This document shows, piece by piece, positions 9,001 to 49,816 of a stretch of 64,000 bases of DNA. A program made the position numbers and the translations under genes. Within the stretch, counting starts at the first letter, position 1; each line of letters opens with the position of its first letter. The notes below the pieces were generated by a model. It ran no database searches, was not told the origin of the DNA, and worked only from the letters and a program-made list of their open reading frames with translations. The stretch is from Bilabrum cf. latius (taxonomy: Eukaryota): positions 310,001 to 374,000 of the forward strand of contig OZ237762.1 of NCBI GenBank assembly GCA_965178125.1. The letters are read 5' to 3'.

Positions 9001-12000
9001 AGCTTCCTGCTCTGCCTTGGCCTTGGCTGCAGCCTCAGCTTCCTGCTCTGCCTTGGCCTTGGCTGCAGCCTCAGCCTCCTGCTCTGCCTTGGCCTTGGCT
9101 GCAGCCTCAGCCTCCTGCTCTGCCTTGGCCTTGGCTGCAGCCTCAGCTTCCTGCTCTGCCTTGGCCTTGGCTGCAGCCTCAGCTTCCTGCTCTGCCTTGG
9201 CCTTGGCTGCAGCCTCAGCCTCCTGCTCTGCCTTGGCCTTGGCTGCAGCCTCAACCTCCTGCTCTGCCTTGGCCTTGGCTGCAGCCTCAGCCTCCTGCTC
9301 TGCCTTAGCAGATGTCTTGCCAGCCTTGGGTGGCGCCTTGGATCCAGCTGCCTTGCCAGCCTTGGGCGGCGCCTTGGATCCAGCTGCCTTGCCAGCCTTG
9401 GGCGGCGCTTTGGGCGCTGATGCCTTGCCAGCCTTGGGCGGCGCCTTGGATGCAGCTGCCTTGCCAGCCTTGGGTGGCGCCTTGGATCCAGATGCCTTGC
9501 CAGCCTTGGGTGGCGCCTTGGATCCAGATGTTTTGCCAGCTTTGGGCGGCGCCTTGGATCCAGATGCCTTGCCAGCCTTGGGTGGCGCCTTGGATCCAGC
9601 TGCCTTGCCGGCCTTGGGTGGCGCCTTGGATCCAGATGCCTTGCCAGGCTTGGGCGGCGCCTTGGATCCAGATGCCTTGCCAGCCTTGGGTGGCGCCTTG
9701 GAGGCAGATGTCTTGCCGGCCTTGGGTGGTGCCTTGGATCCAGATGCCCTGCTTGCCTTGGGAGTGGGCTTAACGGCATCCGAATGAGATTCATCGCTGA
9801 CCTCTTCTATCGGTTCCATTGAGGGTAATGCAGCGTCGACGTTGACATGACTCGGTTGCGACTACCCCACACTCTCCTGCTCGGTTTGCTCGGTGTGCTC
9901 TGTCTCCAAGGGGTCGTGCTCGTCTTGTTCGTCATCCGCCTCGAAGTCTCGAACCAGGGCCTAACCCTAACCCCCACGTTGCGGCTGCAATTTTGGCTGC
10001 CCATTGACACCTCCTTCGTGGTCTGCTGGATTGTGGTCAGTGACGATGGCACCATCAACAGCGTGGGGCTGTGTGTCCTGTACGATGCCCTCTCCGACCC
10101 CCACACCGGGTGGTGAATCCTGATCCAGTTGCGACTCGTCTGCCACACCGGGTGGTGAATCCTGATCCAGTTGCGACTCGTCTGCCACACCGGGTGGTGA
10201 ATCCTGATCCAGTTGCGACTCGTCAGGGCCATTAGCTGCACTGGCAGCATCCGAGGGTAGATTGGCTTCCAGCGATCCAGGCTTCAAGGCCTCATCTGCT
10301 GGTGGCTCATCCGTGTCATCATCTGCATCGGGCTGCTGGGCATGGGCCGTGTCTTGCGGTTCGTGTTGAGCTTGCCCGCCACCTTCGCTTATCGCTACTT
10401 TCACCGCTGATGCCTTGCCAGCCTTGGGTGGCGCCTTGGGCGCTGATGCCTTGCCAGCCTTGGGTGGCGCCTTGGATCCAGATGCCTTGCCTGACTTGGG
10501 CGGCGCATTGGGTTCAGATGCCTTGCCAGCCTTGGGTGGCGCCTTGGATCCAGATGCCTTGCCAGCCTTGGGCGGCACATTGGGTTCAGATGCCTTGCCA
10601 GCCTTGGGTGGCGCATTGGGTTCAGATGCCTTGCCAGCCTTGGGTGGCGCCTTGGACCCAGCTGCCTTGCCAGCCTTGGGTGGCGCCTTGGATGCTGATG
10701 CCTTGCCAGCCTTGGGCGGCGCCTTGGATCCAGCTGCCTTGCCAGCCTTGGGCGGCACATTGGGTGCTGATGCCTTGCCAGCCTTGGGCGGCGCATTGGG
10801 TGCAGGTTCCTTGCCTGACTTGGGCGGCGCCTTGGATCCAGATGCCTTGCCTGACTTGGGCGGCGCATTGGGTGCTGATGCATTACCTGACTTGGGCGGC
10901 GCCTTGGATCCAGCTGCCTTGCCAGCCTTGGGTGGCGCATTGGGTGCTGATGCATTACCTGACTTGGGCGGCGCCTTGGATCCAGCTGCCTTGCCAGCCT
11001 TGGGCGGCGCATTGGGTGCAGGTTCCTTGCCTGACTTGGGCGGCGCATCGGGTGCTGATGTCTTGCCAGCCTTGGGCGGCGCCTTGGGCGCTGATGCCTT
11101 GCCAGCCTTGGGTGGCGCCTTGGATCCGGCTGCCTTGCCAGCTTTGGGTGGCGCCTTGGATCCAGCTGCCTTGCCGGCCTTGGGTGGCGCCTTGGATCCA
11201 GATGCCTTGCCAGCCTTGGGTGGCGCCTTGGATCCAGCTGCCTTGCCTGACTTGGGCGGCGCGATCACGTGTGGTATTGTGCCTTGCGCATTCTACTAAC
11301 CGCTACTTAAAACAAGCCCGTCCATATACTTCGCCTCTCCGCCGGACGACTCTGGTGGATCAGCTGCAGCATCTTGCCTCGCGGGCTTCCGTTTTGGGGG
11401 CGCCACGGCTTTGCGAGGCGCAGAAGCTCCGCCAGTTTTTGGGACAGGCAAATCAGCTGCAATCTCTACAGCACTATTACTGGCTTCATCAGTCGCATCA
11501 GGAGCTGAATCGCCCGTTGACGCGGTTGGCGCAGACTGGGGCTTTGCTGGCGGTCGCTTCAGCTTGGGGGGCGCCTTGGCACCTGGCCGTTTGGGCTTGC
11601 TTGGTGCGTTCATGCCAACAACACCATCATTTCCTTGTTCCAGGCCACTGCTTTCAGCAGTGGCGGCTTCCTAGTGGACACCCTCACTGCCAGCCGATCC
11701 ATCCTCCAGCTCTTGAGAAGACCCCTATTTCGACTGCAGTATACTTGGTGGTTTCTTCGAGGGTTTAATCGTCTTTTTTGGTGGTTTTGCTCCACCAGGT
11801 AGAGCTGCAGCCGCTGGTTTTGCTCCAGGCGGTCTGCTCGCAGGCTTGGAAGGCAGCCGCGCCTTTGGCTTGCCTCCTGGAGGCAACTTCGCCGGTTTTA
11901 CAGCCGGCGGCGTCTTTGATACCTTCACACTCGCACTTGGTTTTGGCGGAAGCTTGCCCTTTGCAGGTGCTTTCGGCGGACCTGCTCCTTTGCTAGGAGT

Positions 12001-24226: not shown

Positions 24227-27200
24227 TCACGCCAGGGTTGACGATAACACATTGCACGCATGGACGCTTGCCCTTGACTGTCCAGAGTCACGCAACTGCT
24301 CGAGGCGAGGAATGGCCCCTGCGTCCCTGACACAGTGCAGCAGGTCCTCGGATAGTAGTGCAATGCCTGCAAGCATTTCAACGGCAAGGTCTCTCACGTC
24401 CTCTTTGGCTGATCCAAGCAACACCACGAGTGCCGGTAGTACACCCGAGTCTACGACACTTTGACAGCCATTTTCCGACATGAGCTGCACCTTCTGTAAA
24501 GCTTGCATGGCATACCACACCACATTGCACTTTCGCGACCCCATCAGCGCCACCAGGCACGGCAGCGCGCCCGCATCCACCACAAGTTGCTTTAGCTCGT
24601 CCGGTCCGCACACGATCCCCTACAGAGCCGCTGCCCCCATCTCGGCCTCTCTGCCCTTAGCGGATCCCAGCAGCCCTACCAGTCCCGGTGCCGCCCCAGC
24701 ATCCGCCACCTGCTATTTTCGCTCGTCTGAGCCATCGGCGATGTTGCCAATAGCATCTGCTGCTATCTATGCCTCCTTGCCTTCGCTCGAACCAAGCAGC
24801 GCAACCAGTCCCGGCAACGCGCCTGCATCCACCACTTGCTTAACATGATCCTCTGTACCCGCGGTAATACTCCGCAAGGCCCTTGCGCACAGTTCTCGCC
24901 CCATACCCCGGTCTGATCCCAGCAGCGCCACCAAGCCCGGCACCGCTCCAGCTTCCACCACATGCTGCTTGCACTCGACCGAATTTACAGCGATATTGGC
25001 CAAGGTTCCGGCTCCTTGCTCTGCTTCCTTGCCCTTGTCCGATCCAAGCAGTGCCACCAGTCCCGGTAACGCTCCAGCATTCACTACATCTTGCTTTCGC
25101 TCATCCGATCCAACGGCGATATTTCGCAGAACCCCTGCTCCTAGCTCGGCCTCCATGCCCTTGCCCGACCCAAGCATTGCTACTAGACGCAGCGTTGCGC
25201 CAGCATCCACCACTTGCCGCTTTCGCTCATCAGATCCAATCACAATCAGTCGCAGTGCACCTGCAGCATGCTCAGCTTCTCTACCTTTGTCCGAACCCAG
25301 CAGCGACACTAGATGAGGCAAAGCTCCCGCTCTGAGAACCTAGTCCTTTCTCTCCTGCGACCTACAAACGATGTTCCGCAGAACCTCAGCAGCATATTCT
25401 GCCTACGCTCCCTTGCTCATTCCCAGCAGCGCCACCAAGCCGGGCAATGCGCCAGCATCCACGACTTCCTGCCGTCTCCTGTTGGACTCGTTAACGATGT
25501 AGTATAATGCCTTGGCTCCAAGCTCGGCTTCCGTGCCCCTGCTCGAACCAAGCAGCGCCACCAAGCCGGGCAACGCACCAGCATCTACCACTTGCTTCTT
25601 TTGCTCCTCTGTTCCCGCGGCAATGTCCCGCAGAAGCTCAGCTGCAAATTCTCGTTCCCTACCTTCACGCGATCCCAGCAGCGCCACCAAGCCCGGCAGT
25701 ACCCCTGTATCCACCACTTGCTGCCGGCTCTCGTTGGAATCGTTGACGAAACAACGCAGAGCCCCCACCGCAGCCTCGACCACACTGTTCTTGTCTGACC
25801 TCAACAGCCCAACCAGCTTTGGGAGAGAGCCTAGATCTATCAGTGTCTTGCAGATCCCGCCCGACTTGGATGCTGTTGCTGATATAGCTAGCGCTGCGCA
25901 CTCTGCATCGCTTGCTCTGGTCGATGACAGCATGCCAACAAGTTGATGCACAGCGCCCGACAGGACCAAGTGGTCAACGAACTCCTCACCATCAGCCTGT
26001 ACTGCATGCCACAAAGCTAGGGCAGCCTAATCAGCCGCAGGTTCTGCGCACCTGCCCGCCATGTAGAAGTTGAGACGCTGGAGCTGCCTTGCATCCTCCA
26101 ATAGCATCTTCTGCAAGGCATGCCGGACGCTTGCTATCATGGGTTGCACCGCTGAGCCTACACCAGCCCAACCTGCACCGAACTCCACATGCAGTAGCAT
26201 CAGCGCCCTGTACACCCCTGTCCAGTTCGCGCCACGCATCATCGAACTGAGGAGCTGGTGCAGTTCGCTGACAGCATCTCCGTACATGGGCCCTTCTCCA
26301 GCCAAAGGAGCTAGTAAAGGCCTCACCTATGCTTCCACTGACTCGGAGCTGTGCTCGAGCGGTCGGCTGGCCTCGGTATCTGCCTGGCTCGCCTTGTCCC
26401 AGCACGGCAGACGTTCCAGTTCTTGCTGCAGGGTGGTGCACGCATCCCGCACCCCTGTTCTCCTCTGTTCCTCGCACTGCAGCAGCCCCTCCACTAGATC
26501 AATGAACCACGGAGGACACCCCGCAAGTCGGTCGCCTCGTGCCACTGCCACACCTTTCTCAAGTCGAGCCAATACGGTTCTTGCGCCACCTGCTGGTACA
26601 CGCCTCCCGCCACGCAGCTCCAGGGGATATGCATCCCCGAATGGGTGCTACCCTCCCGTGGCAAGCTCGTGCAGCAGCACGCCCAGCGCCCAAGAAGCTT
26701 GCTTGCCGAGGGGAACAATTGCATCATCGTCACCTGCCGCTCCCTAGCTCCACCCGTCTAGCACCTCGGGGGCCAGGTGGGCCTGGTTGCCCCAAGCGGC
26801 ACGATCTGTAGACCTCAGCTCCCCGTACGTGACCAGGTTTAGAGCCCTGCCAACTGACGTCTCTGTCCTAGTGGTGGTCGCCTCTGTCCCTGGGCCTGAG
26901 TGCTCGGCCAGCGGGTGCGTCTGTGCAGCTGCTTCAGCTGCCCCCTTGGCCTCCTCTTTGCCCCGTGCCGCAGCGGCTCCTGGCACTTGCGTCTTGGACG
27001 CTTCCAAACACGTATCACCTGTATCTACTTGGAACGCATAGTCAAGACCAGAGAGCACCACCCGCCCTGAGCCATCTGGATCCCCCTTCGAGTCCCACTT
27101 AAGGCTGTCCAGGCTCAGATTGAGGTGGACGACCCCATGCTGCAGCAGGTGGTGCACACCGTCCGCTACATCCTTCGACAGTTGAACCAGCACATCATCT

Positions 27201-32588: not shown

Positions 32589-33938
32589 ATGGCCGCCGTC
32601 GCTGGAGCTAGCAAGGTCGCAAGAGTTCCATCATCAACTAAATCCGTAGATGGAAATGTGCCGCTCGTGCTTGTAAGCGGGGCTACCGGCTATGTAGGAT
32701 CATGGTGCGTGAACACTCTCCTCGGTGCTGGCTACCGTGTCCGGGGAACCGTGCGATCCCTTACTTCAAAGAAAGTAGAGGTACTTAAGTCACTTCCAGG
32801 AGCCCATGAGAGGCTAGAGCTGGTGACGGCCGATCTGTTGCAGCCTGCCGACAAGTGGAAGCCCGTAGTTGCTGGCTGCGATTTTATTCTTCACGTTGCT
32901 TCACCATTTTTCATCAGCGACAACGAGGACGAGTGAGGAATATCACGCTGCATTGTAATTACCCTACACCCGCTGTATGTGCTCGCGCCATGATGCGCAA
33001 GTGGCTGCGCGTTTCCGACATTTGTGTGTACGTGTCGCAGACTTGTGAAGCCAGCGGTAAGCGGCACCCGCGTTGTGCTTCAGGCAGCCAAAGAAACCCC
33101 AAGCGTAAAAAGAGTGGTGCTGACTGCATCGATGGCTTCCATCATGTACGGCCACGGAAGCCTCAACAAGAAGACGTGGACGCCCGAAGATTTCTCAGTC
33201 CCCGACGGGCCCGACATCGACGCCTACTGCAAGTCCAAGACGCTCGCGGAGCAAGAGGCATGGAAAATCGTCCGCGGTGAAGGCGATTACGCCAAGGACG
33301 GCCCCGCCAAGTTCGACCTGGCCACAATCCACCCGGGTCTCATCACCGGCCCGGTGCTCGGCCACATCGGCAAGTTCACTTCCATGGACATTATGATGCA
33401 GGTGCTGGACGGCAACTCCATGGTGGACGGGGGATTCCCCTCTGTGGACGTGCGTGACGTGGCCCGGGCCCACGTACTCGCCATGGTGACTCCCGCGGCG
33501 GGCGGCAAGCGGTTCATCACGACCCACAGCGCTATGCCCCTCATCGACGTGCAAAAGGCCCTCGCTGCTGAGTTCAACGGTAAGGGGTATTCCGTGTCAA
33601 CGGGACTGACCCCCACGTGGCTGATCAACTGCCTCGCCTGCTGCGTGAAGCAAGCAGCCACGGCTCAGTCGCTGATCGGCAAGTTCCCTCAGGTGGACAG
33701 CAGCGCCACCCAATCGGTGCTTGGCCTCAGGTTCATGGGCCAGCTGGACTCTTACATCGACATGGGACACTCCGCCATCCAGCACGGGTATGCAGAGGAC
33801 AAGTCCGAGGACAAGTCGCTGAGCAGAAAGCAGCCCGGGCTGATGGAGCCGTTTGTGGACGGTATCAAGATCAAGGGCAGGGAGGCCGTGGAGGAGGGTG
33901 CGGGAGGTGGAGCAGCTGCCTAGGGTGAGGACAAGTGA
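32589..33938 (+). CDS. NAD(P)-dependent epimerase/dehydratase (dihydroflavonol/cinnamoyl-CoA reductase-like extended SDR); intron 32933-33040
   Basis: VSGATGYVG, GYRVRGTVR, HVASP, YCKSK (YxxxK) and VDVRDVA. TAG 33921 read through gives *GEDK-TGA. Confidence 0.92.
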
Positions 33939-34115
33939 GCCAAGGGTGAGGCCAAGTGACCGATCCTGGCTGGTGCTGCACGATCCCGGGTGTGATATGC
34001 GTGCTGAAAGGATGCGATAGAGTGCAAGTTTCCATTTTGTTTGTTTCGAAGATCCATCGCCGGGCAGAGGCGAGAGATCACCGAGCCGCGATCAAAGCCC
34101 AAGCTGCCTGGCTCT
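33601..34115 (+). repeat. 515-bp direct repeat, left copy
   Basis: Matches 41155-41669 with four substitutions found by eye (33665, 33671, 33960, 33996). Confidence 0.95.
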
Positions 34116-34234
34116 CTATTGGTAAGGCCAGCAAGGTCTCTGAGATTGAGGTCGCTCGGTGGGCGCAGGACCCACTCGAGGAGCAGGCTCAGATGCGACG
34201 TAGCGATACGGAGGAGTGTGAGAGAGAGAGCGGC

Positions 34235-34355
34235 TAGGGAGGGGAGTTGCAGGGGTGGGGTGGGGTGGGTGAATGAAGGGGTTAGAGGGGGTGGGATGGG
34301 CGAATGGAAGGGGTTGGGGGGGGTGGGATGGGCGAATGGAAGGGGTTGGGGGGGG
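34235..34355 (+). repeat. G-run-rich tract with a ~32-bp tandem duplication and G-quadruplex potential
   Basis: GGGGTGGGATGGGCGAATGGAAGGGGTTGGGGG twice, plus further G3-G7 runs. Confidence 0.75.
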
Positions 34356-34775
34356 CAGAGCGGAGGGAGAGAGGGACGACGGTTCACCGGAAAGGGGGAG
34401 GAAGTAGTGGAGGAGAAGATGATTGGTGGGGTCATCGGGTTGATGCGGCGGATTGGAAGGGGGAGGTACAGGCCGGGAAGGTGGGGGATTTGGGCATGTA
34501 TGTGACGGGTGACTCGGATCAGGGGGATCGGATCACCCGACCACATGCGGATGTGGAAGTTGAGAGGTCACAATTAGACTCGAGCGGCAATCAAGCCGGG
34601 CGCTGAGGGGCAGCGCTCGGAACAAGAATGCGGCCGTGCCAGTGGCGGGGTCCAGATTCCCTTGGCGGGGTCTGGTCTCCGCAGCAGGCAGTCACAACCC
34701 AGCACCGTCAATACGCAAAGGGAGCAAGCTAGCAGGCCACCATTCCGTAAAATCTCATACTGGTCTTCATTTTCC

Positions 34776-37700
34776 ATGATTCGGGGCTTTCGGACGGTTT
34801 GCGTCGCTTTGAGTCCGCGCGTCATTCGACGAATTGCCGTCCGCAGCCTCGCGACAGATATGCGCAATGTGCACGGCTTGATGAGATAGCAGCGTATCAT
34901 TTCGAGCAAGTGTAGCGCACGTCTTGAGTACTATGGCAGAGGGATGCAGCGCACGCTTTTGTCAGATGCTGTGGTTGGCCCAGGCACTACATTATCATCA
35001 ATCAACCAGAAATGGACGATGACTTTGGGGACAGCTTGGCACGGTTAGCGGTCCATGGAGGCATTCATTTTGCAAGTCCCCTTATTTTTTGAAGAACTTC
35101 AGAGGCAATCGCGGGAGACTGTAGAGCAATCTGCTTCAGCCATGTTGAGCTGCCAGCGTCGGGCAATTATTGTTGCTAGGCAACACAAAGACAAGACTCC
35201 AGGCGAAGTTGCTGAATCGATTCACACTCTGATATCACGTGAAGCTGCTTCTGATGATCGCATCCTCTAGGGTGGCGATGAGTTACAAGCTGCAGATGCC
35301 GACAACGTGCAATACCTTCTCAATCAAGGCCTACTGAGCTATATGGCGCACAAGGGCTCGATTGATTACCTTCGCAGCGATCAGGCAATACTAGATATGA
35401 AGGAGATGAGAGACATCATCCGCGAGTCGCTTGAGCAAGATGATTCGAAGCGTAGGAAGGAGGAGGAACGGCAAGAACAGAAGCGTAAAGAGGATGAGCG
35501 GCTTGCGAGTGAGGGCCTGCCTCCTGCAGACTACCTCGAACAGATTCGTGGGCAACAGATCGCGATCGACGCTGAGGCTATTGTTTCCTCCATCAGCAAG
35601 GCAGCGGCAAGGACCGGCTTTCAGATCCCACGGCCATTCGAGGGGGGTACTGTCGCAGAGGCTATCAAGAGGCATATCTAGGCAAACTGTAGAGGAGTGG
35701 AACTTGCTGACGCCGTGCGCGAGTCTCTGCGGCTACTTGGAGATGCCATGGTGGACTTGAACGCAAGTGCGAACGCTAACCCTAAGAACGCTATGGAGTG
35801 GTCAGCAAAATGGAAGGTGGCCATGTTCCCGATTGTCGATGCGCCGGACAGCCAGTCTCCACGGCGGCAAAAGCTTGATGTGTTATTGAAATTGTGCTTT
35901 GGCACGGATCCGGTGGGTCTGAGAGGTGGGACGTTGATGGGATACGAGGGCTTGGGCAAATCGCAGATAGTCAAGAACCTTGTGCTTGGCAAGCAACTCG
36001 CTGGGTGGGCCCTGAAGGGCCACCCTGGCAGTGATCGCAGGCATCACGTTGGGATCTTTGTAGAGGACCCCAGCATGTCCACTCTCGGATTGATGCGCGT
36101 GCGGCCACCATGGGCCCATGTCGCCGTGGAGTTGGATCGATTGGGTCTGCTTAGGGATGAGAACGGAGATATTCCATCCTGGGCACATTCAGAGGTTGCG
36201 TGCTACCGGGAGGCTCAAATGAATTTTTGGATGGTGGACAGAGACATCGACTGCTTGATCGCCTACGACGAGGCCCAGCACGCGCGCGAAGTGGTACAAG
36301 AAAATCGCGGAGGAATGGTCAAATACACTGCGCGATCCAAGCGATTTTGGGATGGGATTGACGATTGCGTTCGGATCGACACCCAAGCGATTATGATTGT
36401 GCTCACTGGCACTGGCAGCGACTTGGGTCGCATCGTGTACGGGAGACGCGAGGAGACTGGCCAGTTTCCCGGGTCTGATCTGCAGCGCGACAAGTTCAAG
36501 TCGCGGTGGATGGAGTTCACGTACTCCGAGGCTGAGATCTGCCTCATGCTGCTTCGACAGCTGGCTGGGACAGAACGGGATAGAAATTGGGTGCCAGATG
36601 ACGGTAGTGACCCTGCTGCAGCATTGAGGCCAGTGTGTGGGCAAGATGCCGTGCTGGCCCTAGCCCTTGCCATTCGTGATGTTCCGGCCTCGAGTCCTTG
36701 GGCAAGCACGGGACAAGTGGTCCACCCTGGCCTTGAAGCCGTGCATGCAGCCGTGCAGTCGTACTACAGAGAACTAGAGGAGGGTAAAGCTGGAGATGCA
36801 GCTGGTTCGGTTTCACTTGACATTGCGCCGGCTGGCAGAATGACGAAGCAAATCGCTGAGCATGCCTTTAGCGACGACAGACTGATGCAAGTGGCAACGA
36901 GATCCAGGGAAAAGGTGATGCTCAGGGCGTGGTAGACGGGTGGCCTGGCCCGCAGTCTGGCTGACATCAACGGATAGGGTGAAGTGGATGGGTCTTCGAC
37001 CACGGAGGGAAAGATGGTGGAGTGGTTCCGGCACATGAACGAGAACATCGGAGGTTTCCGAGACGTTATGATTGCTATGGTCAGCTACATGAACAAGTTC
37101 CGACCGTCGTGGCTGTCTGACTCAATCGTGAATCCGATGGCGGAGATGCCGACGATACTCGTGGTTGAGCTGGTGGGAGAGATGGAGACCCTTGTAGGTG
37201 ACAGCAATACCAATGGAGAGGAGTTGGCGAAGAAAGTGACGCTGCTGAAGAGGCACCTAGCTCGTTGGCGTATCAAGTAGCTGATTGGGTATCGCACCCA
37301 GTAGGAGGGGCTGTACACGTCGCAGGGGCAATCTATCTCAGAACCGTCTGCCAGCTTTCTCGGAGGCTCATTTGCATTTCTGACGCAGCAATACACCGCC
37401 ATCATGAAAGGTGTGTACGTGACTAGGCGAGAGCTTGCATCACTGCAGACGCAGGAAGGCCAGTTTGGCAAGGACTTTGAGATGGTTGTGGCCGAGTCGC
37501 TGCACCGCGGGCTGGTGTCCAAGATACTGGCGAAGGGGGTGCTGCCCAATGTGCCCAAGGAAGTGTGGGAGGGCAAAGAGGATCCCATTGTAGAGCACGA
37601 TCGCGCGAATAGCTTGCTGGATGAGGACTGCCTCTTCTACATCAACAAGCCATGCGAGCACTCCCGGGAAGAGCTCGTGGGACGCGTGATGCGGGAGCAC

Positions 37701-38312
37701 CCTGACTGGGCTGGAGTGGATCTTTCGGTGGTCCTAGAGGCAACCAATCGGGACAATGGGACTGCTGTCAAATCTGGCCCGCGATACCATGTCATTCGAG
37801 TTCAAGTGAAGGGTGGAAAGGCCAGTGTTCCCTTGAATCGCATCAAGCCTTTCCTGAGCAAAGCGAATGTTGACAAGGCGAGAGGTGCCTACGCTCGTGC
37901 GCTTGGCGTGGGAGAGGACGAGATCCAGTTCCATCGCCTGCTGGCTACCATGCCACCTGTGGCGCCGAAAGTTCGAAAACTGTTTGCGCCGGCGGCCGGG
38001 GCTGAGTCAGAATCGCCAGCGGCTGGGAAGTTGGATGCGAAATCTGACGAGCACGTAAATGATTCTTCGTTGGATGGCTACGACCTGTCGGACATGTGGC
38101 TTCTAGAAGACAAGGAATTCGTGGACTTCCTATTCCCTGATGCCCAGATAACGCTGCATCGACTGGGACACAAGGTCGTGACTAAGGAGAGGGAGAGCGA
38201 GCTGATGCAGGCTGTCAACCCATTGGACAGGCAGGTACCCAGACACTCTCCGGCACAAGTCGATTTCTGGGCCCCATTGAGGGAAAAGGCCGAAGACAAC
38301 GGCCCGATTTGA
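34776..38312 (+). CDS. ~1178-aa P-loop NTPase plus PD-(D/E)xK restriction-endonuclease-fold protein (Crinkler/RHS-type architecture)
   Basis: Walker A GYEGLGKS, Walker B LIAYDEAQ, sensor-like VLTGT, and C-terminal GKDFE..GVDL..RVQVK. Six track ORFs in one frame joined by eight TAGs (34887, 35046, 35268, 35679, 36933, 36975, 37278, 37302). Ends TGA. Start ATG inferred. Confidence 0.72.
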
Positions 38313-39146
38313 GACTATTTCGTGAGTAGGAGTGCCAAGGCTTGTTCTCCACATCAAGCCTCTGATCGTGGTGGTGGGCGTTCGGAAAGACCAACTGCGA
38401 CCATGCGACTGCCACCATGCGTGACTGTCTGCGAGATTATATACCTATCGTCGGATGTGGTTTGGGTTTGATGCGACGAAGAGAGCGAAGGTGGGGATGT
38501 CTCCCGGTTTCTGTTCTGGTGTAGGGACCGGCCGCAACCGGTGGCAAATGCCCACCATAGTCTCTATGAGTTGCAGCTCTCTCTGTATTCAGGAGAAGGA
38601 CGGAGTTCGGGTTAATTCGTTTTACTATGTCTGATTGATCCGGATTGGGAGGCCAGCTTGCGCGTTATCTCTACGACCATCAAAGTGGTGTGTATAGTGT
38701 GTGATCCAGCCTAGATCTACGGTGTTCATGGCATCTTGCCTTTCACCCCTTTCTTCCAACACGAAGTCCAGACACACCGACTAGGCTTGTCTGCGTCTGG
38801 CAGCCTGCCCGCTCCTGGCCTCGTCCCTGTTCCCTCCATGCTGGGGCGATTGGGCCCCGCCCGATGCCGATGCCTCGCCATCCTTCGGATCCTGCTGCAG
38901 AGGGAGGCGTCTAGCATCTCTAAAGGATCGATTGCACGCAGAGCATCCTTGGCCTCAGCCACCGCTGGCGCACTTTTTCGACCATGACCTGGAGAGGTCT
39001 TGTAATGCTGAGTTCAGTAACAAATGTGTAGACCTACCAGTTAACTCAAAGGTGCTGAGAAAGAGGGCGACGGTGCACAGGACCTGGGCAGAACCATGTT
39101 CATCGGGTGTCAGGCCCGTCGACGCTCCGCGGCGGACCGGTAGTAT

Positions 39147-40948
39147 CCGTGACCCCACAGATCTTGTCGTGTAGTTGACTCGGAATATTTAAAAAAGGAA
39201 GCACTCAGGAACGTTCATTAACACGGCATAATGCAACTGAATTATATCTCCGTGTGAAGTCGTTAGTTTCTAGTTTTTAGATCAAAAAGAAGATTTTTGA
39301 TATCTTGTATACTGCAAGAGATATGCGCGATCAAAAACCGTGGATTTGGGCTTCAGCTGGGCTCAATATCGTGACGAGTGTCCCCACACATCTTGACAGG
39401 TAGTTTGTATCTCCAAAATCATTGTACTCTAAGCAAACCCATTGATGTCGTATCAGTACATGCAGAACATGACTATTAAAACTATCGATACAGCCAAACA
39501 ATTTTGGTGCTTATTCAAATTTAGGCACGCTGTAGCTCGTTGAACCAGGCCTCTTTGGACTGCCACTAAATTTGCTTTCTTTCATCTCTGTATTCTACAG
39601 TATCGGCTTGCAGCGCAAACTGTAGGCAACATTTCCAATATGAGCGCTTTCAAAAACAAATGCGTAGCATGGAATTCCGATAGTTGTTTCCGATGGGCCC
39701 GTTTTGTCGACTAAACATGCGTTTGTGCAGATCAAGTCAGAACCTGGCAACACCAATGCGAGATGAGCGCAGCATACTACACGCAGGATCGTATCAATGC
39801 AATCTTTATATGGAAGTAGACGATATAGTCCAAAGCTTAACTTGCACATGTTGCAGAGCCCGTCTGTAACGGCAGGTCTCTACACCAGTATGCGGATCTT
39901 GCATCACGGGCGAATCCACCGATCCTCGCTCTTTAATGAGGCATACAGCCATCTAAGCCAGAATTTATGCATTAAATATTAGTGAGGATTCTATTCATGC
40001 GATGATATGCGTATTGATTGAATATTGGCGAGCATGGCCCACGCAGTCCTGCCGTCGGTCAATCGGTAGAGGTGCGCGAAGCATGTATCCTGTGCCCAAG
40101 TCGTTTGCTGTTCTGCAATTTCCTGTACCTGAAATCATGCCATACATTGGTATTCTATCCAACCGGCTAGGTCGGAGTTATCTACCACCCTGAATAATGG
40201 CCTGGGACCTGGTTCAGTGACACGAGGTGCTAGGTCAGCCAGCGACACGAACAACTACCGTTTATGCTCCTTCAATAATGCATCAACAGTAGATTCACTC
40301 ATACCAATGGTTCAATGAAGTCCTAATTTTACCAAGAGTGCGTTTTCAGTCTCTAGCTTTCTCATGGACGCCCAAGTCGGGCGACTCTGTCTCATGTGTA
40401 CCAGCCAGCGAATCTGGCCACGGGCAACGACCTCAGTAATGTATGATTATGGAGCGGTAAAACTCCAAGAATGATGAGGCCTATAATAGTATAAACCAAA
40501 ACAACGCAAAAATCGAATCAGTTTGGTCTGCATGCATCATGCAAAGTGCACGTAGTTATGATGCCCAATCGATCCAACCTCCGGCTTCAACTCAGTGCAC
40601 AAAAGTGACGCAAAGCATAAAATAGAGCCAATCACACATGTACATGCTATATGTGGCTTAGTTGGGAGAGTCGTAGTTTACGTTTCATACAAATCGGCCC
40701 GCATCCAAGTATCAATAGTAAAGATGATCCAACACGTACGGTACACAGCCCTAGTACAGTGCATGAAGCCTACTTCGAGGTTTACTCCTGACCATACTAC
40801 GATTACGATATATATAAATGCTTGAAGCAAAGACTTCCCAAAGAATACTCATTAAATCTCGCGTAAAATAGGAGTTTGTGCCAAACACGCCAAGATGTGT
40901 GGGCGTGCTCGTCACACTTACTACACGACAAGATCTGTGGGGTCACGG
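39147..40948. mobile_element. 1.8-kb AT-rich element with perfect 29-bp terminal inverted repeats and apparent AT target duplication; non-autonomous or decayed DNA transposon
   Basis: CCGTGACCCCACAGATCTTGTCGTGTAGT at 39147-39175 and its exact reverse complement at 40920-40948. AT flanks both ends. No long ORF seen inside. Confidence 0.8.
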
Positions 40949-41154
40949 ATCAGTGTGCTGATGCCGACAAACACTCGCCAAGCTCGCCACGGGGGCTCTT
41001 TGCTTTGTTCCAAATGGTGCGGATCTTTGCATCCTGTGCACGAGGCGGCTCGCCTGATTGCGGTCCACCACACCAAGCTCCTTCGCATGGCAGTCCAAGC
41101 ACTTGCTACAATAAGCTGTGAGACGGCACCATGCCTGTCAATCTGTGACCACAC

Positions 41155-41492
41155 CGGGACTGACCCCCACGTGGCTGATCAACTGCCTCGCCTGCTGCGT
41201 GAAGCAAGCAGCCACGGCCCAGTCTCTGATCGGCAAGTTCCCTCAGGTGGACAGCAGCGCCACCCAATCGGTGCTTGGCCTCAGGTTCATGGGCCAGCTG
41301 GACTCTTACATCGACATGGGACACTCCGCCATCCAGCACGGGTATGCAGAGGACAAGTCCGAGGACAAGTCGCTGAGCAGAAAGCAGCCCGGGCTGATGG
41401 AGCCGTTTGTGGACGGTATCAAGATCAAGGGCAGGGAGGCCGTGGAGGAGGGTGCGGGAGGTGGAGCAGCTGCCTAGGGTGAGGACAAGTGA
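41155..41492 (+). pseudogene. 5'-truncated duplicate of the SDR gene 3' end
   Basis: GLTPTWLINCLACC..GGGAAA identical in protein to the 33601-33938 segment, but lacks the N-terminal Rossmann and catalytic parts. Confidence 0.85.
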
Positions 41493-41669
41493 GCCAAGGG
41501 TGAGGCCAAGTGAGCGATCCTGGCTGGTGCTGCACGATCCCGGGTGTGACATGCGTGCTGAAAGGATGCGATAGAGTGCAAGTTTCCATTTTGTTTGTTT
41601 CGAAGATCCATCGCCGGGCAGAGGCGAGAGATCACCGAGCCGCGATCAAAGCCCAAGCTGCCTGGCTCT
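41155..41669 (+). repeat. 515-bp direct repeat, right copy
   Basis: Matches 33601-34115 and contains the functional stop of the 41646 gene. Confidence 0.95.
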
Positions 41670-44600
41670 GAACCAGAAGGCGGCCGTAGTGGCTGCCACC
41701 ACCACGAAGCAGATGATCATGGTCCTCTCCGCGTAGAAAGCCGACCACTGCATCTCCTTCCTCTGCCTCCTCCTCTCCGCCTTCTTCTGCGCTTTCTTCG
41801 AGGATCTCCTCCTCTTCATTCTCTCCACGCCGTCTGCCTCCAGCCGAGGCGATATCACCCTCCTGCCCCTGAAGTCAGACTCGCCAGACACTGCGCTGCT
41901 GGCGGTGGCAGTGGCACCAGCCCTCTCGCCACCAGACGAAGCCTGACCCGCCCCCCTGTTGTTCCCTGACGCATTGATGGGTCGCCTCGCTCCCGCTGAC
42001 ACGTCTCTCTCGTACTGGTTCCGCCTGTACACTGGCCCTTTGATCGCCAGCATGTGCCTCATTGCGTGGTACCCGTCAGAGGCACGCCTCCCTCTGCCCT
42101 TGCCTCCCCCTCTGCCCGTGCCCGTGCCCGTGCGAGCGCCCCCTCTCTGGGCACCGCCACCCCCGGGACCCTCCTTTGTTCCCTGGTTAGCCTCGGTGTC
42201 CTCCAGCGGATCGCTATCTGGTCCCCCCGCCAGGCCACCTGCCACGTGCCGCACCGGGCTGAGTTCCCCAGAGAACAGCAGCCCGGCTTGCGCGACCCGG
42301 CCTCCTGCAAGCCTCCTCGCCCGGTTGTCCACCACTGCAGGCACGCCGTCATCGAGCACCCCCTGAAGGAAATCGTCCTCCCTGGCCAGCCCATGGGCGG
42401 CATGTCCAGGCACGAATTCGTCCTCCTCGTCGCTGTGCGCCTCATAGCCCGGGATGAAGGGAACGTTCGCCACCGAGTTCCTCCGGCCGATGCTGGAGGT
42501 GCTGGAGATGTACCGGCTGATCCTGCTGTCCCCTGAGTCGCTCCTGCCCTCCTCGCTGTCTGCCGCAATGTGGCCAGAGATCCCTGTGCTGGCTTGCACC
42601 GCATCATGGCCTTGCATCCTCCTCCCCCCTGCCCTGTCCTGCACCCGACCCTTTCCACCTCCTGGTGTCACCCCTGTCGCCTGCTCGGGCCGATGGTCGA
42701 GCCTGCCCGCGCTGCCACTGCCGCTCGGCATGATCTTGCCACTGCCGTACGCAGACACCCTACTCTGTCGTGTGCGACCGGCCCATCTCTACTTGTGGCT
42801 GGGTGAACTGGGCGCTTGTGGCACCTGCACACCGGCAGCTTCTGCAAGCGTTTCTGCAGCGTGCTGCTCCGTCGCTGCTGCCGCCATGCTGCCCTGCCCA
42901 TTTGCCTCAAGCACCGGGCTGCTCCCCGGTTCCACCAGCGGTGCCGTCACTTCTACTCGCATGGGTGGCGGGAGCCCGCCCATCTCGCTGTTGAGGGCAG
43001 GGGCCTCGAAGGTCGCTGGACCACCGTGACCAGTAGCACTCGAATCGTGCGACACGTCCTGCGTATCATCCGCAGCAATGCTGCTTGACCCGTCCTAGTT
43101 CTTACCCGACCCCTGAGCCTGAGTCTGCTGGCCCCTGCTCGATATGAGCTCCGCCTCCCCCACGACGGCTCCACCAGCCCCGGCTGCCGAGCCACCAGAG
43201 GCCAAGAGGCTGGCACTGCTAGCCCTGCCCTTGAACCCCATACGAGGCGGCGCATCAACGCCGCCCTCCTCCAGGTCCTCGCCAGCGCTGCGCTGCGAGT
43301 CGCTGGAGGACCCACTTGAGCTGTCGCTGTTCCTGGCACGGTCTGGACTCTGCATCAGCAGGCCAGAGGCAACGCCCATGTGGAACGAGCGCTTCCTCGA
43401 AACGTCATTAGGGCCGCCTTGCAGCTCGTATCGTGGCATGCGGTGCTCCCCGTCGCGAGCTGTCTGTAGCAGCGAGCTGCTGTCACCATCAGCAGTCACC
43501 TCCACTTCCTTCTGCGAGTCGCGCTGCGAATTTGAGGCACCGCTGGACCCGCGGGAGCGACCCGTGTCCTTGTTCTCAGACGTGCCGTCGCTCGAGTCCA
43601 AGATGCCGTCCCTTGTGGCCGTATTCGCAGTGATAACGGCAGCCGTGTCGGTGCGCTTGTTGGAGTTCCTATTGGCTTCAATCAGGTCCTGGTTCACGAG
43701 CTGCTGAGAGAGTGACAAGCTCTAGGACACGCGGCGCACGTGCTAAGCGCTGTAGTCGGCCCCGTGGTGCGCCCTGGGTTGGGTAGACCCCAGCACCCGC
43801 TTGCTCCTCTGCCGCTCCTGGCTCATGCTTTCCGCGCGAGAGCGGGAGCTGCGACCCACGCTGCCGCTGAGGAAGTGCCTGCTGCCGTGGCTTGCCGAGG
43901 ACTTGCTCCGATTCCGCTATTCCCCCAGGTTGGCCATGGACACCACGGCGCCCGCGTCTTCGCTCTGTTTCCCGTGGGGTGGGGTCCCTCCGGCATCTCC
44001 GGCGCTGGCGTTTCCAGAGGGCAACACCGCACTGACCCGCTGACCTCCTGGACCGCTGGCGATTGAATGCCGACTCAAAGACCTCGATCGATCCCTCCTC
44101 TCCTGGTTGATGTGACGTGCGGACTCCCGCATGTCCTTGGCCTCTGCATGCGTTGCCAGTCGCATGTGGGCCTGGTGCACGAACCGAACCATCACGAGTG
44201 CCATCTTGCCGCCCCACCGCAGGCGAGCGTACGCGTGGTGCCTCCGAGTGATGATGTAACCCACACCCGAGGCCACGATGGTGATGATGAAGATGAGAAG
44301 GAAACCCGTCCCGAAAAGCATGGACTGCAGCGAGTCCTGCTGCACCCCAATGCCAAGGTACCAGGCCCTCATCTTGCCGCTGAGCGAGTCCTGCTCGTCC
44401 TGGATGTCGTCGAATGACGCCGACAGCACCCTCGAACGGATGGCACCGATCCCAAACATGAGCTCCTCACCCAAAAAGGAAGCAGCCACGCAAGCAGTGG
44501 CGAGGATCTCTTGCAGCACGGCCGATTCGACCTTCTTGGCTGTGGCCTGTGCCTGCCAGAGCGGTTGCACGGGCCACATCACGAACCTCGAGTTGCATTG

Positions 44601-46260
44601 CGTGATTGCCTGCCACAAGTGCACGTAGAGCCGCGTCTCGATAAAGATGATGCGGCCCATCTTGACCAGCGCGGTGAAGCCGAACGCAAGCGAAAACGGG
44701 TCCAGCTGCACGAACGCCACGGCAAGGAACACCCGCGAAAGGAACCCGAACAGGAACTTTGCCGGTTCAGAAGCCACCGGGCTGACGGTAGACGCTGCGG
44801 CCAAGATATCGATGGCATACTGCGTCACACCCAGGACGCCGAGCACGAACGAGATGACCGCCATCTGAAAGATCGGGCTGTCTCGCGTGATGCTGAGCCC
44901 AAAGAAGAGAAACTCTCCGAGCGCGGGCGCGAATGCATCCAGCATCACCACGAGCACCACAACTGCCCCGGGGTCTAGCCGCCGCCGGCCTGCCTCTCTT
45001 CTTGCGTAGTCCCAGAAGATGACCACTCCGGCGAACAATGTTGCCAGCGCACCCATCGGCACCAGAAGAGCCTCGACACCCGACTGGAACGCGATCTAAC
45101 CCAGGGGGATGGCCAGTGCGAAGATCCATGCGGTGATGGACATTAGGCCGGGAGACCACACGGGATTGTGCCTCGCGCAGCACTGGTCATGATGGTTGCA
45201 ATACTCCCGGGCAGGGACGCAGCAGGCGTCGCAGCAGGTGAGGGGGCTGCAGTACCCGCAGCAGATCTTGTTCGTACGAATCCACCGCTGGCAGCTGCCA
45301 CAGACGAGGTAGGCTTCCTGATTTGCCACTTCAGCTACACGGATGTGTGCCTACACCTCGTGCTGCTGTGCCAGCATGACAACCCGCTAATAGTCCTCGT
45401 CCTGCTGCCTGACAGGGCCGTATCCGAGCCTGTCCTGTGGCACAGCCACGGGCCTGGGCACGGGCCGATCGCCACCACTTGTGCCAACCTTGACGGGGGG
45501 CGGCGGCATGGCAACCGCAGCAGGAGTTGCGTTCTGTGTTCCCTCGCCTGGGTGCTGCCTCGATGCCACGTCTTCTGCTTGCGGTGCCTCGCCGTTCTCG
45601 GCAGCCTGTCTCGCGATGACATCGGAATTCTTGGCGGTGTGAATACGCTTAACCTTCGGCATGTCCACGTCTGGGGTATTCCGGCCGTCGGCACTGCCAT
45701 TGCCGTCTCTGTCATCGTCCTGCGCGCCACCCACGTCAATGGTCCGCTCCATCGACCGCTTGCGGTTCATCCCACGGTCCCCGCCGGGACTAGGGTGGAA
45801 GTTGCCGCTCTGGACCAGCTGACCAGGCGAGGCGCCTGATGCCATACCCCCAGCTGCATCGCCTTCCGTGCGTCTTGGGCTCGTGAAGGTGGGCTCCGAT
45901 TCGGTGTTGCCGGTCATGCCTGTGATCACCTTGCCGCTTCCCAGCGAGCTAGTGGAGCTCTAGTGGTGCACATTCACCATGCTCGCAGATTGCCTCGGCG
46001 TGAAATCGTAGCTGGGGTGCTACTCGCCCGCAGGACGGGGCCCTCTACTAGGTGACCTCCCGTCCCCTGATCGGAGCAGCATTTCCTAGCCGTCTGCCGC
46101 CAAGCCGGCAGTGTCGTGGCTGGGGTGCGTCACCTCGCGCATCGCCAGCGTGCGGCTGAGTCCGCTGTTCGAGGAGTTCGTGTGGGCCGAGCTGGAGGTG
46201 CTGGCGGGCTGGCTGCCTCCACCACCGTCAATGGGTGCATCGACCTGCAGCGCGAATGGG

Positions 46261-46312
<52 letters not shown>

Positions 46313-47493
46313 AAGGGCTTGCTTGGGGAGAGCTATCCTGCCCTCTGTCTGGCTGCGGCGTGGACGCTAGTGGCAGCGAAAGCGAGGCAACGGCTCCTTC
46401 CTGCGTGGCTGCACTGGTGCCACCAGTGGACGTCTTCTTGGGAGCTGCACTCGCAGGCTGCAGGGAGTCTGACCCTGTGGATGGCTGCTTGCGAGGAGCA
46501 TCGATGCGAAGCGCACTCGAGCTGCTTCGGTCACCAGCGGCTGGGCGGGCGGCGGTGGGGCTGCCTGCAGGGTGCTCCTTCCCGTCGGCCTCTACTTCTG
46601 CCTCGCTAAACATCCTGTCCACGCGCTTGCCGTCGCCTGTTTCGAACCAACCGCCAGCTGGGGTGTTTGTGGGGTTCGCGGTCGGTGCGGCCAACATGGA
46701 GGCAGCAGCAGCAGCGCCGGCGGTACGGCTGGCACTGGCACTGCTGTCCTGCTTTGACTCTCTGCGAGCCACCACTCGATGAGAGCCACCTGTCTAGTGC
46801 GAGTCTTCGGGCCTGGGCGCCCGATCGAACCCTCCTTCACTGGCAGAGTGCGCCTCGGTGGGTGGTGCATGGCTTGCAGATGTGGTCCTGGACGGGCGCG
46901 GCCCTGATTTGCTGTCTACTCCATTGGCATGAGAGGCATCAGCAGAGCTTGCGGCACTGTGAGGCTCTGCATGCAGGTGCAGCGAACCGTCGGCTTGGCC
47001 CACCGCCAGCACCGCCGCTTTAGCCATGGTCATGGGAGCGTTTGGCAATGCCGCCACCCTCGCCGAGGAGGAGGAAGGGGAGGGGCGCGCGGCAGCGATG
47101 GAGCTCCGCCGCCTGGCCTTTGCCCTGCTGATTGCTGCCAGCGCCTTGCGAGCGAGCCTGTCCCTCGTGGCCTGCGAGGCAGACTGCACCCTGGCCCTCT
47201 CGGCATCAAGGCACAGTACCTCCAGGTCGATTTCCTCCTGCAGTGTAACGGACCCGCAGCAGCACCATGTGTGCGAAGGGCTGAATGCGGGGAGCACTTC
47301 CTCCTGGAACTCGATCTGCGTGCCCTTCATGTCGTGTCTGGCCAAAGCCCGCATCACTGTCGTCACGCTCTCGCCCCCGCTGGGTGCCTTGGCAGAGGAC
47401 GCTGAGGAGAGAGCTCGTTCCCGGCGTGAGACCCCGCCGTTGGGAGGGTCAGGGATGCCTGCCGTCTGCGTTTGCGTTTGCGTTTGCGTCTGC

Positions 47494-47527
<34 letters not shown>

Positions 47528-49178
47528 GGCCTCCTCCAGTGGACGAGGAGGAGGACCCTAGCCCGGTGGGGGTCTGGCGGTCCGTGTCAGACTCTGTGAT
47601 CTTGGGGTAGGCGAGGGCGCTCTTGTGCTCCAGCTCGTGCTTCTTCGACTACAGCTGGCTCTGCCCGCCGTAGGAACCACCCGGCGGATCAGACCCATCT
47701 GGCTCTCCTGCAGGCCTGGTCCCAGCAGCCAGTTGCACCCCCCCACCCCGGGGTACACCCCCGCTGCCCCCACTCGGGGGCATTCTGGTGGAGGGGAGTC
47801 GAAGGGAGGACGAGGAGAAAGCGGCGTGCTTCCTCTGCTCAGAATCCATGTCTGCAGCTGTGGCAACGTGTGACGAGTGGTTGCGCCTGCCAGCATCACG
47901 TTCGCCGCCAGCAGCTGCTTCAGTCCCATCGTGGTGAAACGACTGCCTTCCCTTTGTTGACTGTGGCTGCCTACCGGCTGAGGCAGCATCCGCCCCGCTT
48001 GAGTTATCCAGGCTGCTCCTGCTCCTGGACCTGGATCCGTTGCCATTGCTATTTTCCATGCCCTAGACATCGCCTGCTCCACTGGTGGAGTGGCGGCGCC
48101 GGCGGCGAGTCGCCGCGGCGCCAGTCCCGCTAGCGCCTGCCTTTAGTTCCGCACCGCTGCTTGCGCTTCCGCTGCGGCTGCGTCCCCCGCTGCGATTGGA
48201 CCGCACGCTGCGAGACGATTCGCCGCGCTTTCCACTGGCAGACCGTCCTCCGCCTCGCGACGGACTGGACTGTCCCAAATCTTGTTCGTCGAAACGACGG
48301 CTCACTCCCATGTACTCATAAAAGCGCCCAGATGTGCTTCTTCGATTGTCGTTGCCTGAGCGCGGGCTTTCTGCGCCCTTCGCGAATTGCGGCGAATCGA
48401 TGAGGGTTCTCGCGGCTCGGTGCAACAGTCGGCGTGTGTGCAGCAGCCTGCGGCGATACGCGTAATGCCTCGTCGCAAATAATACCCACGGGATACCAAC
48501 CTAAAGAATCAGCACGGCGCCAATAAAGAACGCCGCTCGGAGCCAGAAGAAGGCCGGTATGGACCGCATTATTTCGCTCCGCTCGGTCAATGTCACATTG
48601 CCGGGTGCCGCCTGCAGGCTCGCAGCTCGAATGCCTCCTCGAAACACAGAACCACCTATTGCGTATCCCCACCACATGGCAGGGGAGTAGCCCCCTCCCA
48701 TGCACGCGGCGTACCACCGAAAGGTCTGTTGCCAGTGGCTGAGCCCCTGACTGAGCCCTACCACGACCGATCTCCAGTGCTTCGTCGACTCCTGTCCGGA
48801 GTATCCTAGAGCACACATACTACCAACCAGAAGTGCGAACGTGAGAGCAAACACAGTGTCGAACAAGCGCTAGTTAGTGACAGACGGGCACGCGAATCGA
48901 GTCCAACATCGCTTGGAACCAGCAGCACGGGGCTCATCCTCTCCATCTCCATTTCCATCGTTGATGAGGGGCTACTCATTCAAGTCCTGGCCATCTAGAC
49001 GAGTCCGCGTGCCATCTCGCATGGTATCGAGCGCGAGTGTGGGTACGTTGAGCGCTGCTTCGCCGTCATCTCCAGCTCCGGATGACCCTCGAATAGCGGC
49101 GTTTGACGGCGCGTTGTTCGCTGGTATAGCGTCTGTAGTCTGCATGTACACTTCCTCTCGCTTGGACTGTTCGTTCAT
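41646..49178 (-). CDS. ~2510-aa multi-pass membrane protein with long disordered loops and poly-Gln tracts, function unknown
   Basis: Twelve track ORFs lie in one frame; 19 in-frame TAGs and no TAA/TGA over 7.5 kb until TGA 41646. Hydrophobic clusters near 48450-48870, 44250-45150 and 41670-41720. Start inferred. Confidence 0.8.
46263..46313 (-). repeat. Coding TAG(CAG)16 poly-Gln tract
   Basis: (CTG)16 followed by CTA on the + strand, in the frame of the large gene. Confidence 0.95.
47490..47528 (-). repeat. Coding (CAG)4-TAG-(CAG)8 poly-Gln tract
   Basis: (CTG)8 CTA (CTG)4 on the + strand, in frame. Confidence 0.95.
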
Positions 49179-49816
49179 GTACACGAACCGAGGTATTCGA
49201 TCGAGTGGCGCGTGCGCATCCACAGAACGCACCAACTTACACGTAGTTCTTGTACGAGTTGGTGGACTAGCGAAAAATGCCTGCGATACTGACTGTAGAA
49301 TATGAAACAAGTGCCAAGGTAGGAGAATACCGCTGCGACTGAATCTCGTAGGCCGTCTCAGGCGGCACCGCCGGTGCTGGGTTCGCCACCCGCGCATGCT
49401 TGGTGCGTCTGTCCTGCACTGCCGTAGTTGGCAGCCAGCAGGAGATGCAGACAATTTATCAAATTTGAACGAACCTGATTGGCAGAGCCACTTCAAAAAG
49501 TGCGCCTTGGTATCCGCCCAGCGGCAAGACTAGACTCCCGAACGTTTGCTTTGGCACAAGCAAACAAAAGCCGAAGAAATCCGGTAATTTCCCGAAGACA
49601 GCCGCAAAGGTTCTCACTGTCAGATATGATAATATATTCCACTCCTGTAGACGTATAATATGGGCTGTATCAGTGGTTCAGCACATGTTGTGCGATGGTC
49701 GCTGTTGGTCGCAAGCCAGTGCGCTCGGCCAAAGGTCTGGTTTGTGTGGAAGTAACGCGTCATTATAGCTGCTCGTGGCGACCACCACCCAGCTCTTCCG
49801 TTCACTACAAATATAC

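Follow-up and report, generated by a model that had tools for sequence, protein, structure and literature searches.

In this study, we report the analysis of a 64,000-nucleotide window (contig C28, OZ237762.1, positions 310001-374000, from a 48.6-Mb eukaryotic assembly), in which a gene encoding a nucleoside triphosphatase fused to a restriction-endonuclease-like nuclease (NTPase-REase) lies on a 7-kb insert between two copies of a 515-bp piece of host sequence. On balance, the gene at this locus probably belongs to a dispersed set of selfish NTPase-nuclease genes; it would have come in by insertion with long target duplication and then been retained by selection. The analysis established the anatomy of the locus, the existence of the family, an enrichment of locus-specific flanking repeats (brackets) around its members, an active-site pattern kept intact in ATPase and nuclease, purifying selection, and subsequent tandem doubling consistent with unequal exchange between brackets.

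The duplication described in the earlier note was confirmed: positions 33601-34115 recur at 41155-41669 with an offset of 7554 and sharp edges, and the two copies differ by four substitutions only (33665, 33671, 33960 and 33996). No further copy was present within the roughly 0.8 Mb of this genome's DNA examined. The flanking host features are as follows.

32589 to 33938, plus strand: host short-chain dehydrogenase/reductase (SDR)/epimerase-type gene, with exons 32589-32932 and 33041-33938 and an intron at 32933-33040.
33601 to 34115: left copy of the target duplication, with the SDR 3' end, the 153-bp intergenic region and a dead end of the convergent gene (last 7 codons and stop).
41155 to 41669: right copy of the target duplication, with a dead SDR 3' end, the intergenic region and the live end of the convergent gene.
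41646 to 49397, minus strand: convergent host open reading frame (ORF) of 2583 codons, with no Pfam family and with its stop within the right copy.

The left copy thus supplies the last 112 codons and stop of the SDR gene and the right copy the last 7 codons and stop of the convergent ORF (49397-41646), leaving both neighbouring genes intact despite the insert, as had been claimed. The reading of the repeat as host sequence rather than a long terminal repeat also held, the flanking repeats being locus-specific in a cross-locus blast. Removal of the insert and one repeat copy leaves an ordinary tail-to-tail gene pair with stops 153 bp apart, and this empty state is therefore probably the natural ancestor.

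Searches of the same genome identified at least 18 loci of the NTPase-REase family, 17 of which were examined; the remaining one, C32, consists of two partial matches. The earlier note had proposed to look for long host duplications around other copies of the gene, and these were found at nine of the 16 other loci. Including the window, locus-specific direct repeats of 140 to about 1260 bp bracket 10 of the 17 loci, seven clearly and three in eroded form, and every bracket is unique to its own locus, except for the last 100 bp at C38a. The brackets are listed below.

Window: 515 bp, 99% identity; clear.
C39: about 1090/870 bp, 99.8% and 93% in two parts; clear.
C25: 1101 bp, 95-97%; clear.
C26: 235 bp at 98% and 1025 bp at 96%, taken as one duplication of about 1260 bp that was later trimmed; clear.
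C7: 374 bp, 81-93%; clear.
C29: 220 bp, 86-95%; clear.
C10: 295 bp, 99%; clear, and from the held-out set, that is, the five loci taken in after the hypothesis was formed.
C42: 140 bp, 76%; eroded.
C11a: 187 bp, 73%; eroded.
C38a: 311 bp, 76%, the last 100 bp being a dispersed repeat; eroded.

Among 56 other long ORFs of a contiguous 204-kb stretch, used as controls, three were bracketed, all in one tandem paralog array. With the focal locus excluded, the comparison is 9/16 versus 3/56 (p=2e-5), and for the clear cases alone 6/16 (p=0.003). The footprint is thus real and general within this genome. In the clear cases, the repeat spans a gene boundary and full ORFs are kept in both neighbours. 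The neighbours are of unrelated, ordinary kinds (PEPCK, sulfite reductase, a beta-helix protein, SDR). The nearest paralogs lie on other contigs, and the closest to the window gene is about 55% identical. The twin genes at C25, C26 and C29 would fit repeat-gene-repeat-gene-repeat arrays produced by unequal exchange, with the extra repeat partly deleted.

The single long ORF of the insert encodes the following features.

34545 to 38312, plus strand: intronless NTPase-REase ORF of 1255 codons, nine of them TAG read as Gln.
35940 to 36500, plus strand: NTPase motifs (Walker A 35940-35963, Walker B 36255-36278, conserved basic motif 36480-36500).
37479 to 37817, plus strand: PD-(D/E)XK nuclease core (E..H helix, E.PD..G.D strand, QxK motif).

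As judged from an alignment of paralogs, the ATG at 34776 is the likelier start, because the first ATG falls within SE, a short multicopy non-coding repeat. No Pfam family, including Crinkler and RHS, was matched by the window protein, and seven of 11 paralogs matched AAA_22 weakly, below the curated cut-off. The predicted model (pLDDT 73) was nearest to ORC1/Cdc6 and STAND ATPases (Foldseek, E 2e-4). The model of the C-terminal domain (pLDDT 75) gave a best Z of 7.5 (root-mean-square deviation 2.7, 111 aligned), with PD-(D/E)XK nucleases in most top rows; the nuclease domain alone had no Foldseek match at E<=0.001. Walker A and the E.PD..D strand are conserved in full-length paralogs, and the E.PD motif is present in 20 of 22 tabulated ORFs, the other two being truncated. 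A His three residues after the helix Glu occurs in the window protein and eight paralogs and is substituted in the others. The C25 pair has a modified QxK motif, and four divergent copies gave no match to the search pattern for it. Judged by these motifs, the active-site pattern of both ATPase and nuclease is intact. The predicted architecture resembles the NTPase+REase arrangement of Crinkler-RHS (CR) proteins, the named CR, RHS and Medea members being compared by description only.

A profile search returned 71 relatives, unnamed or hypothetical and mostly fragments, with both domains in some distant ones, and distant relatives with both domains occur in unrelated metagenomes; three metagenomic loci lie on contigs of 2.1-2.3 kb, their flanks beyond the contig ends. 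None of 81 candidate stretches on viral contigs matched, and a word-indexed protein search with the family alignment gave no matches. Values of dN/dS were 0.25-0.42 among paralogs and 0.36-0.60 between near-identical tandem twins, from which the family genes, twins included, are judged to be under purifying selection. Because of this selection, and since the genes are intact where their brackets have eroded to 73-81%, they are not neutral dead copies. At C27, C29 and C39, paralogs are mosaics of each other across contigs, which suggests gene conversion within the subfamily.

Long ORFs of host and insert alike are open only when TAG is taken as sense in the nuclear code, and TAA and TGA seem still to be stops in the whole window and at all family loci. 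Opposite TAG, Gln is found more often than any other residue (116 counts; 6 of 18 conserved columns), and TAG is thus most likely read as Gln. Gene calling with table 11 breaks these TAG-containing proteins into fragments. Elsewhere in the window, long coding tandem repeats with units of 36 bp and 126 bp were observed at 8468-11300 and 24515-25750.

Around the ORF, the insert is a composite of older and younger pieces.

34118 to 34619, plus strand: 5' part of SE, ending after the hairpin like many other copies and 97-98% identical to the family majority sequence.
38383 to 38709, plus strand: old remnant of the SE 3' end, split by a dispersed repeat of about 190 bp (about 38440-38623).
38703 to 41158: decayed host-gene piece of about 1.1 kb from source contig C8, kept as 38703-39146 and 40949-41158, with internal deletions.
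39147 to 40948: nested, young, non-autonomous terminal inverted repeat (TIR) element of 1802 bp, with 29-bp perfect inverted ends (CC...GG) and a 2-bp AT target duplication.

The fixed end of SE lies 2 bp from the left repeat copy, and the two SE pieces differ in age. The C8 piece contains a dispersed repeat of about 95 bp (38995-39090), differs from its source at 48 of 485 aligned sites (9.9%) and by several deletions, and shares microhomologies of 7 bp with the SE remnant and 4 bp with the right repeat copy. The AT duplication of the TIR element is proven, because the C8 source preserves the empty site; the element has about 4x depth, corresponding to about four near-identical copies. Within the insert, terminal inverted repeats with a short fixed duplication (DDE type) were found solely in this nested element. 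In agreement with the earlier note, the insert ORF matched no integrase, transposase or reverse transcriptase (RT) family in Pfam; Pfam searches likewise revealed no methyltransferase family with this ORF and no other mobility genes in the insert, whose nested elements are non-coding or decayed. Extra DNA in the other inserts, searched for old target fragments, consists mostly of nested dispersed repeats, and host-gene filler is limited to three loci: the window with the C8 piece, C27 with 705 bp from a neighbour, and C29 as judged by eye. The C29 filler (L081:9865-10000, L082:1-556) resembles a coding piece of what we take to be a glycoside hydrolase gene. In the C27 array, the first two genes are truncated, with 705 bp of the neighbouring host gene, and an internal telomere-type array follows directly after the third family gene (L077, about 8800-9200).

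The four mismatches between the repeat copies had been taken as a sign of a recent event or of an allelic origin. We favour allelic origin over recency, because the copies differ mostly at silent sites. All five coding differences in the two youngest pairs are silent (2/2 in the window, 3/3 at C10), and over seven genes 26 silent and 19 replacement differences were counted, where 36-44% silent would be expected from neutral decay of a dead copy (p 0.002-0.04); inclusion of an eighth gene, whose start is uncertain, changes the counts to 34 and 31 (p 0.005-0.10). The copies therefore look like two alleles, either brought together from two homologs when the insertion arose or renewed by conversion from empty homologs. 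A recent event is doubtful: the divergence of the host fragment in the insert is tenfold that of the repeats, the fragment carries deletions and nested elements, and the nearest paralog reaches only about 55% identity. Both routes of entry suggested earlier fall short. Single-crossover integration of a circle cannot by itself account for the pattern, since at every unrelated locus the gene would have to be linked to local target DNA beforehand. Plain staggered cutting on a single chromatid should give identical copies that afterwards diverge neutrally; the silent excess disfavours this unless later conversion is added.

The likely agent, which the earlier note did not name, is the NTPase-nuclease gene itself. 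We are inclined to think that a selfish nuclease gene provokes a break, enters it by recombinational repair with overlap, and persists by addiction or drive; the cut, the dependence on the gene's own product, the addiction and the self-mobility are all inferred from sequence. In a first step, the ATPase would load on DNA and license the nuclease to nick or break the chromosome. Repair would then copy the gene-bearing segment, with ragged ends and adjacent filler, into the break, and rejoining 0.2-1.3 kb upstream of the point of departure would leave the target present twice, one copy coming from, or being later refreshed by, the empty homologous chromosome, which would give the silent-site differences. 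In a genome that is roughly 78% coding, the survivors would be insertions whose duplication covers a gene boundary, so that the neighbours stay whole. Scarless loop-out between the repeats would remain possible, and selection would retain the gene, most likely through a toxin-antidote or drive effect comparable to the one reported for Medea-type relatives.

Tentatively, and with some doubt, the family could represent an undescribed class of eukaryotic mobile DNA: one STAND/ORC-like ATPase-nuclease gene without fixed ends, inserting via two widely spaced cuts or a collapsed fork, with a duplication of 0.2-1.3 kb that spares both neighbours, capable of scarless loop-out or amplification by way of these repeats, and maintained by addiction or drive. 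It would then be the long-suspected, still-mobile form of the Crinkler/RHS/Medea-type genes.

Several observations weigh against a selfish insertion of this kind. Seven of the 17 loci have no bracket (C11b, C27, C38b, C31, C25b, C8b and C2, the last four viewed with only about 3.3 kb per side), and in the held-out set, also visible for only about 3.3 kb per side, only C10 of the five loci is bracketed. Three of the positives are eroded (73-76%), and C38a is partly a dispersed repeat. The sole close ectopic pair, C31 and C38b (91% over 3 kb), lacks brackets at both loci. None of the young-looking brackets has a near-identical donor, conserved ends were not seen, and no target motif was visible at junctions inspected by eye, nor was a verified empty allele found among the four runs examined out of the 11 listed public runs (X1, X5, X6 and X7). 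The control is one 204-kb stretch that holds no other recently dispersed gene family, and not the genome. The fold scores are modest (Z <8; whole-model TM about 0.3 to the target). Finally, a 515-bp direct repeat of 99.8% identity surrounds 1.3 kb of unique DNA without a family gene at L057:3255-5587, and hence the genome can form such structures otherwise.

The last point leads to the strongest competing explanation, namely that host repair alone is responsible: these would be rapidly evolving conflict or defence genes with birth-and-death evolution, and template switching with re-replication would bracket any ectopic copy without involvement of the nuclease. In its favour are ragged ends, filler DNA and microhomologies, purifying selection in place, the seven unbracketed loci and the bracket at L057. 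In Arabidopsis, moreover, flanking repeats of more than 30 bp accompany 14% of transposed genes and 2% of controls (PMC2869330; this and the other papers below are cited from the portions available to us). There, too, host sequence that is not a transposable element (TE) lies on both sides and is single at the orthologous empty site. The Arabidopsis case differs in that repeats were searched at 30-400 bp, concern a minority of genes from many classes and were ascribed to homology-driven circle integration (PMC2869330), whereas here one nuclease family is involved, at the majority of its loci and without homology between donor and target. Compared with the plant case, the brackets here are more frequent (9/16) and longer (up to about 1.3 kb), and the cargo is a nuclease each time, as in the bacterial cases discussed below. 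At 39 loci centred on SE, most of the other long repeats proved to be tandem paralogs or satellites, which also speaks against a general host process, and we consider host repair alone unlikely, though it is a serious alternative. Among the loci viewed, L033, L035 and L050 contain tandemly arranged host genes of one family, whose products have ankyrin or kinase domains and a common short conserved C-terminal module.

It is quite improbable that the genes are retrocopies made in trans by a Dualen-like long interspersed nuclear element (LINE) that generates duplications of several hundred bases. Dualen-4b of Chlamydomonas has duplications with a median of 900 bp and was the only eukaryotic element with duplications this long found in the literature (PMC9977147, available portion). 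The family genes lack introns, C31 is 5'-truncated, and at 3.9-4.2 kb the smallest inserts (C39 and C26) have roughly the size of a transcript; the genome holds 84 RT matches. However, among ten of these matches inspected, none of the five LINE copies with both ends in view, which were of the restriction-like-endonuclease (RLE) and apurinic-endonuclease (APE) types, had a flanking repeat of >=40 bp; three others were DIRS/Ngaro-like elements with their own split repeats, and two lacked a 5' end. Neither poly(A) nor a shared tail was seen at the 3' junctions of the family inserts, and the RT pieces in two inserts are internal decayed fragments. Variable duplications of hundreds of bases are also known for the R9 LINE (126 bp, cited in PMC9977147) and HERV-K (111-250 bp, PMC5488345), but these elements, like Dualen-4b, possess RT with endonuclease or integrase and defined ends, as far as described in the portions available, and the insert has neither. 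The inspected RT loci included young DIRS/Ngaro-like retroelements with RT, RNase H and a recombinase-like ORF and with split direct repeats of 263 and 145 bp (L106-L108), and several young LINE families of RLE and APE type with copies more than 99% identical (L109-L115).

Very improbable is the capture and transport of the gene by SE, acting here as a rolling-circle-like element, in which case the left end would be fixed, the right end (the C8 piece, taken from the donor flank) fuzzy and the duplication variable. The SE family comprises 60 matches; the repeat is non-coding, about 0.5-0.7 kb long and carries a hairpin, its left end being constant and its right end either fixed or variable; copies form head-to-tail arrays, are frequently truncated directly after the hairpin and show no target duplication (L023-L061), and SE looks like a rolling-circle non-autonomous element. 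The position of its fixed end beside the left repeat and the SE remnant behind the ORF would suit such carriage, and Replitron-1 has fuzzy ends and variable duplications (PMC10288648, available portion). Against this, a target-type flanking duplication was found at none of 31 SE copies; raw upstream-downstream recurrences at five of them were the repeat's own tandems or minisatellites in four cases and a weak match (71-75%) in a paralog pair in the fifth. The other bracketed loci lack SE ends, and the two SE pieces in the window are of unequal age. SE as the terminus of a nuclease-gene element was ruled out, as it is a short repeat in its own right.

Support for the assembly was sought in the four runs. 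Contigs of X6 and X7, from two other studies, cross the left junction without differences. A contig of X1 reaches out of the insert and covers the first 30 letters of the right copy, one below the 31-letter bridging rule, and depth in X1 equals that of the flanks (insert ORF 51 and 48.6; flanks 48.5 and 45.6). X5 and X6 appear RNA-like, as the SDR intron at 32933-33040 is skipped in their contigs; no run is recorded as RNA. Both cover the insert ORF, and depth over the nested TIR element is zero there, which gives a hint only that the ORF is transcribed. One X5 contig skips 7554 bp. Because X5 is RNA-like and its contigs include the insert ORF as well, with 0 differences over 2949 letters, the skip may reflect two convergent transcripts merged via the shared repeat, and the contig was not accepted as an empty allele. 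An artefact, either a haplotype mis-join or a collapsed repeat, is hardly credible: it could appeal to that contig and to the absence of a contig over the whole locus among the pieces listed for the four runs, but the left junction is bridged independently, depth is even, the X5 skip can be a transcript merge, and the same architecture recurs at nine other loci.

Of the described processes, the nearest is insertion with long target duplication in bacterial restriction-modification (RM) genes, reportedly described by Nobusato in 2000. In the bacterial cases, repeats often span start or stop codons and amplification occurs through the repeats (Furuta 2010, PMC2853133, available portion). The present locus shares with them a nuclease gene, a long variable target duplication (>30 bp there), the absence of another mobility gene and a target gene left intact, and double-strand breakage was proposed there as the cause (PMC2853133). 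It differs in its eukaryotic nucleus, one fused NTPase-nuclease ORF, no methyltransferase seen, and duplications of up to about 1.3 kb. By analogy, the system would work like the RM case and is not an RM system.

Among eukaryotic genes, CR-NTPase8/CR-REase7 and Medea1 of Tribolium similarly have an NTPase followed by an REase and an ORC/Cdc6-STAND-like fold (PMC5289972, PMC11342252), and the His three after the helix Glu, with a Glu on the first core strand, is common to the CR-REase7/Medea1 clade and to the window protein and its closer paralogs (PMC11342252). Mosaic exchange among paralogs is a further likeness to CR genes, in the text available; unlike these, the window protein has no Pfam Crinkler or RHS match. 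The fish AACRNL provides another example of a Crinkler-like gene as a genomic parasite in a free-living eukaryote, but encodes an ADP-ribosyltransferase and is moved by adjacent hAT/mariner ends; target-site and direct-repeat terms are absent from that paper (PMC12957317). In the literature covered, outside which lay supplements, Repbase and the majority of subscription papers, no long target duplications were found reported for NTPase-REase genes of eukaryotes.

A transposon origin, and perhaps continued mobility, has been proposed for NTPase-nuclease genes of the Crinkler/RHS/Medea type. An insertion footprint of their own was not described in the literature covered. A consistent footprint in one family, matching that of bacterial restriction genes, makes mobility directly testable in a single strain that looks culturable and for which public DNA and RNA-like runs exist. 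Standard TE annotation would miss such elements, because they have no shared ends, are low in copy number and carry repeats made of host exons, and they may therefore be widespread. The chance that a duplication does not lie wholly within one ORF was 0.22 at 5 bp, 0.36 at 500 bp and 0.50 at 1 kb. Long duplications are thus also a way for genes to become partly duplicated and for inserts to settle safely in gene-dense genomes.

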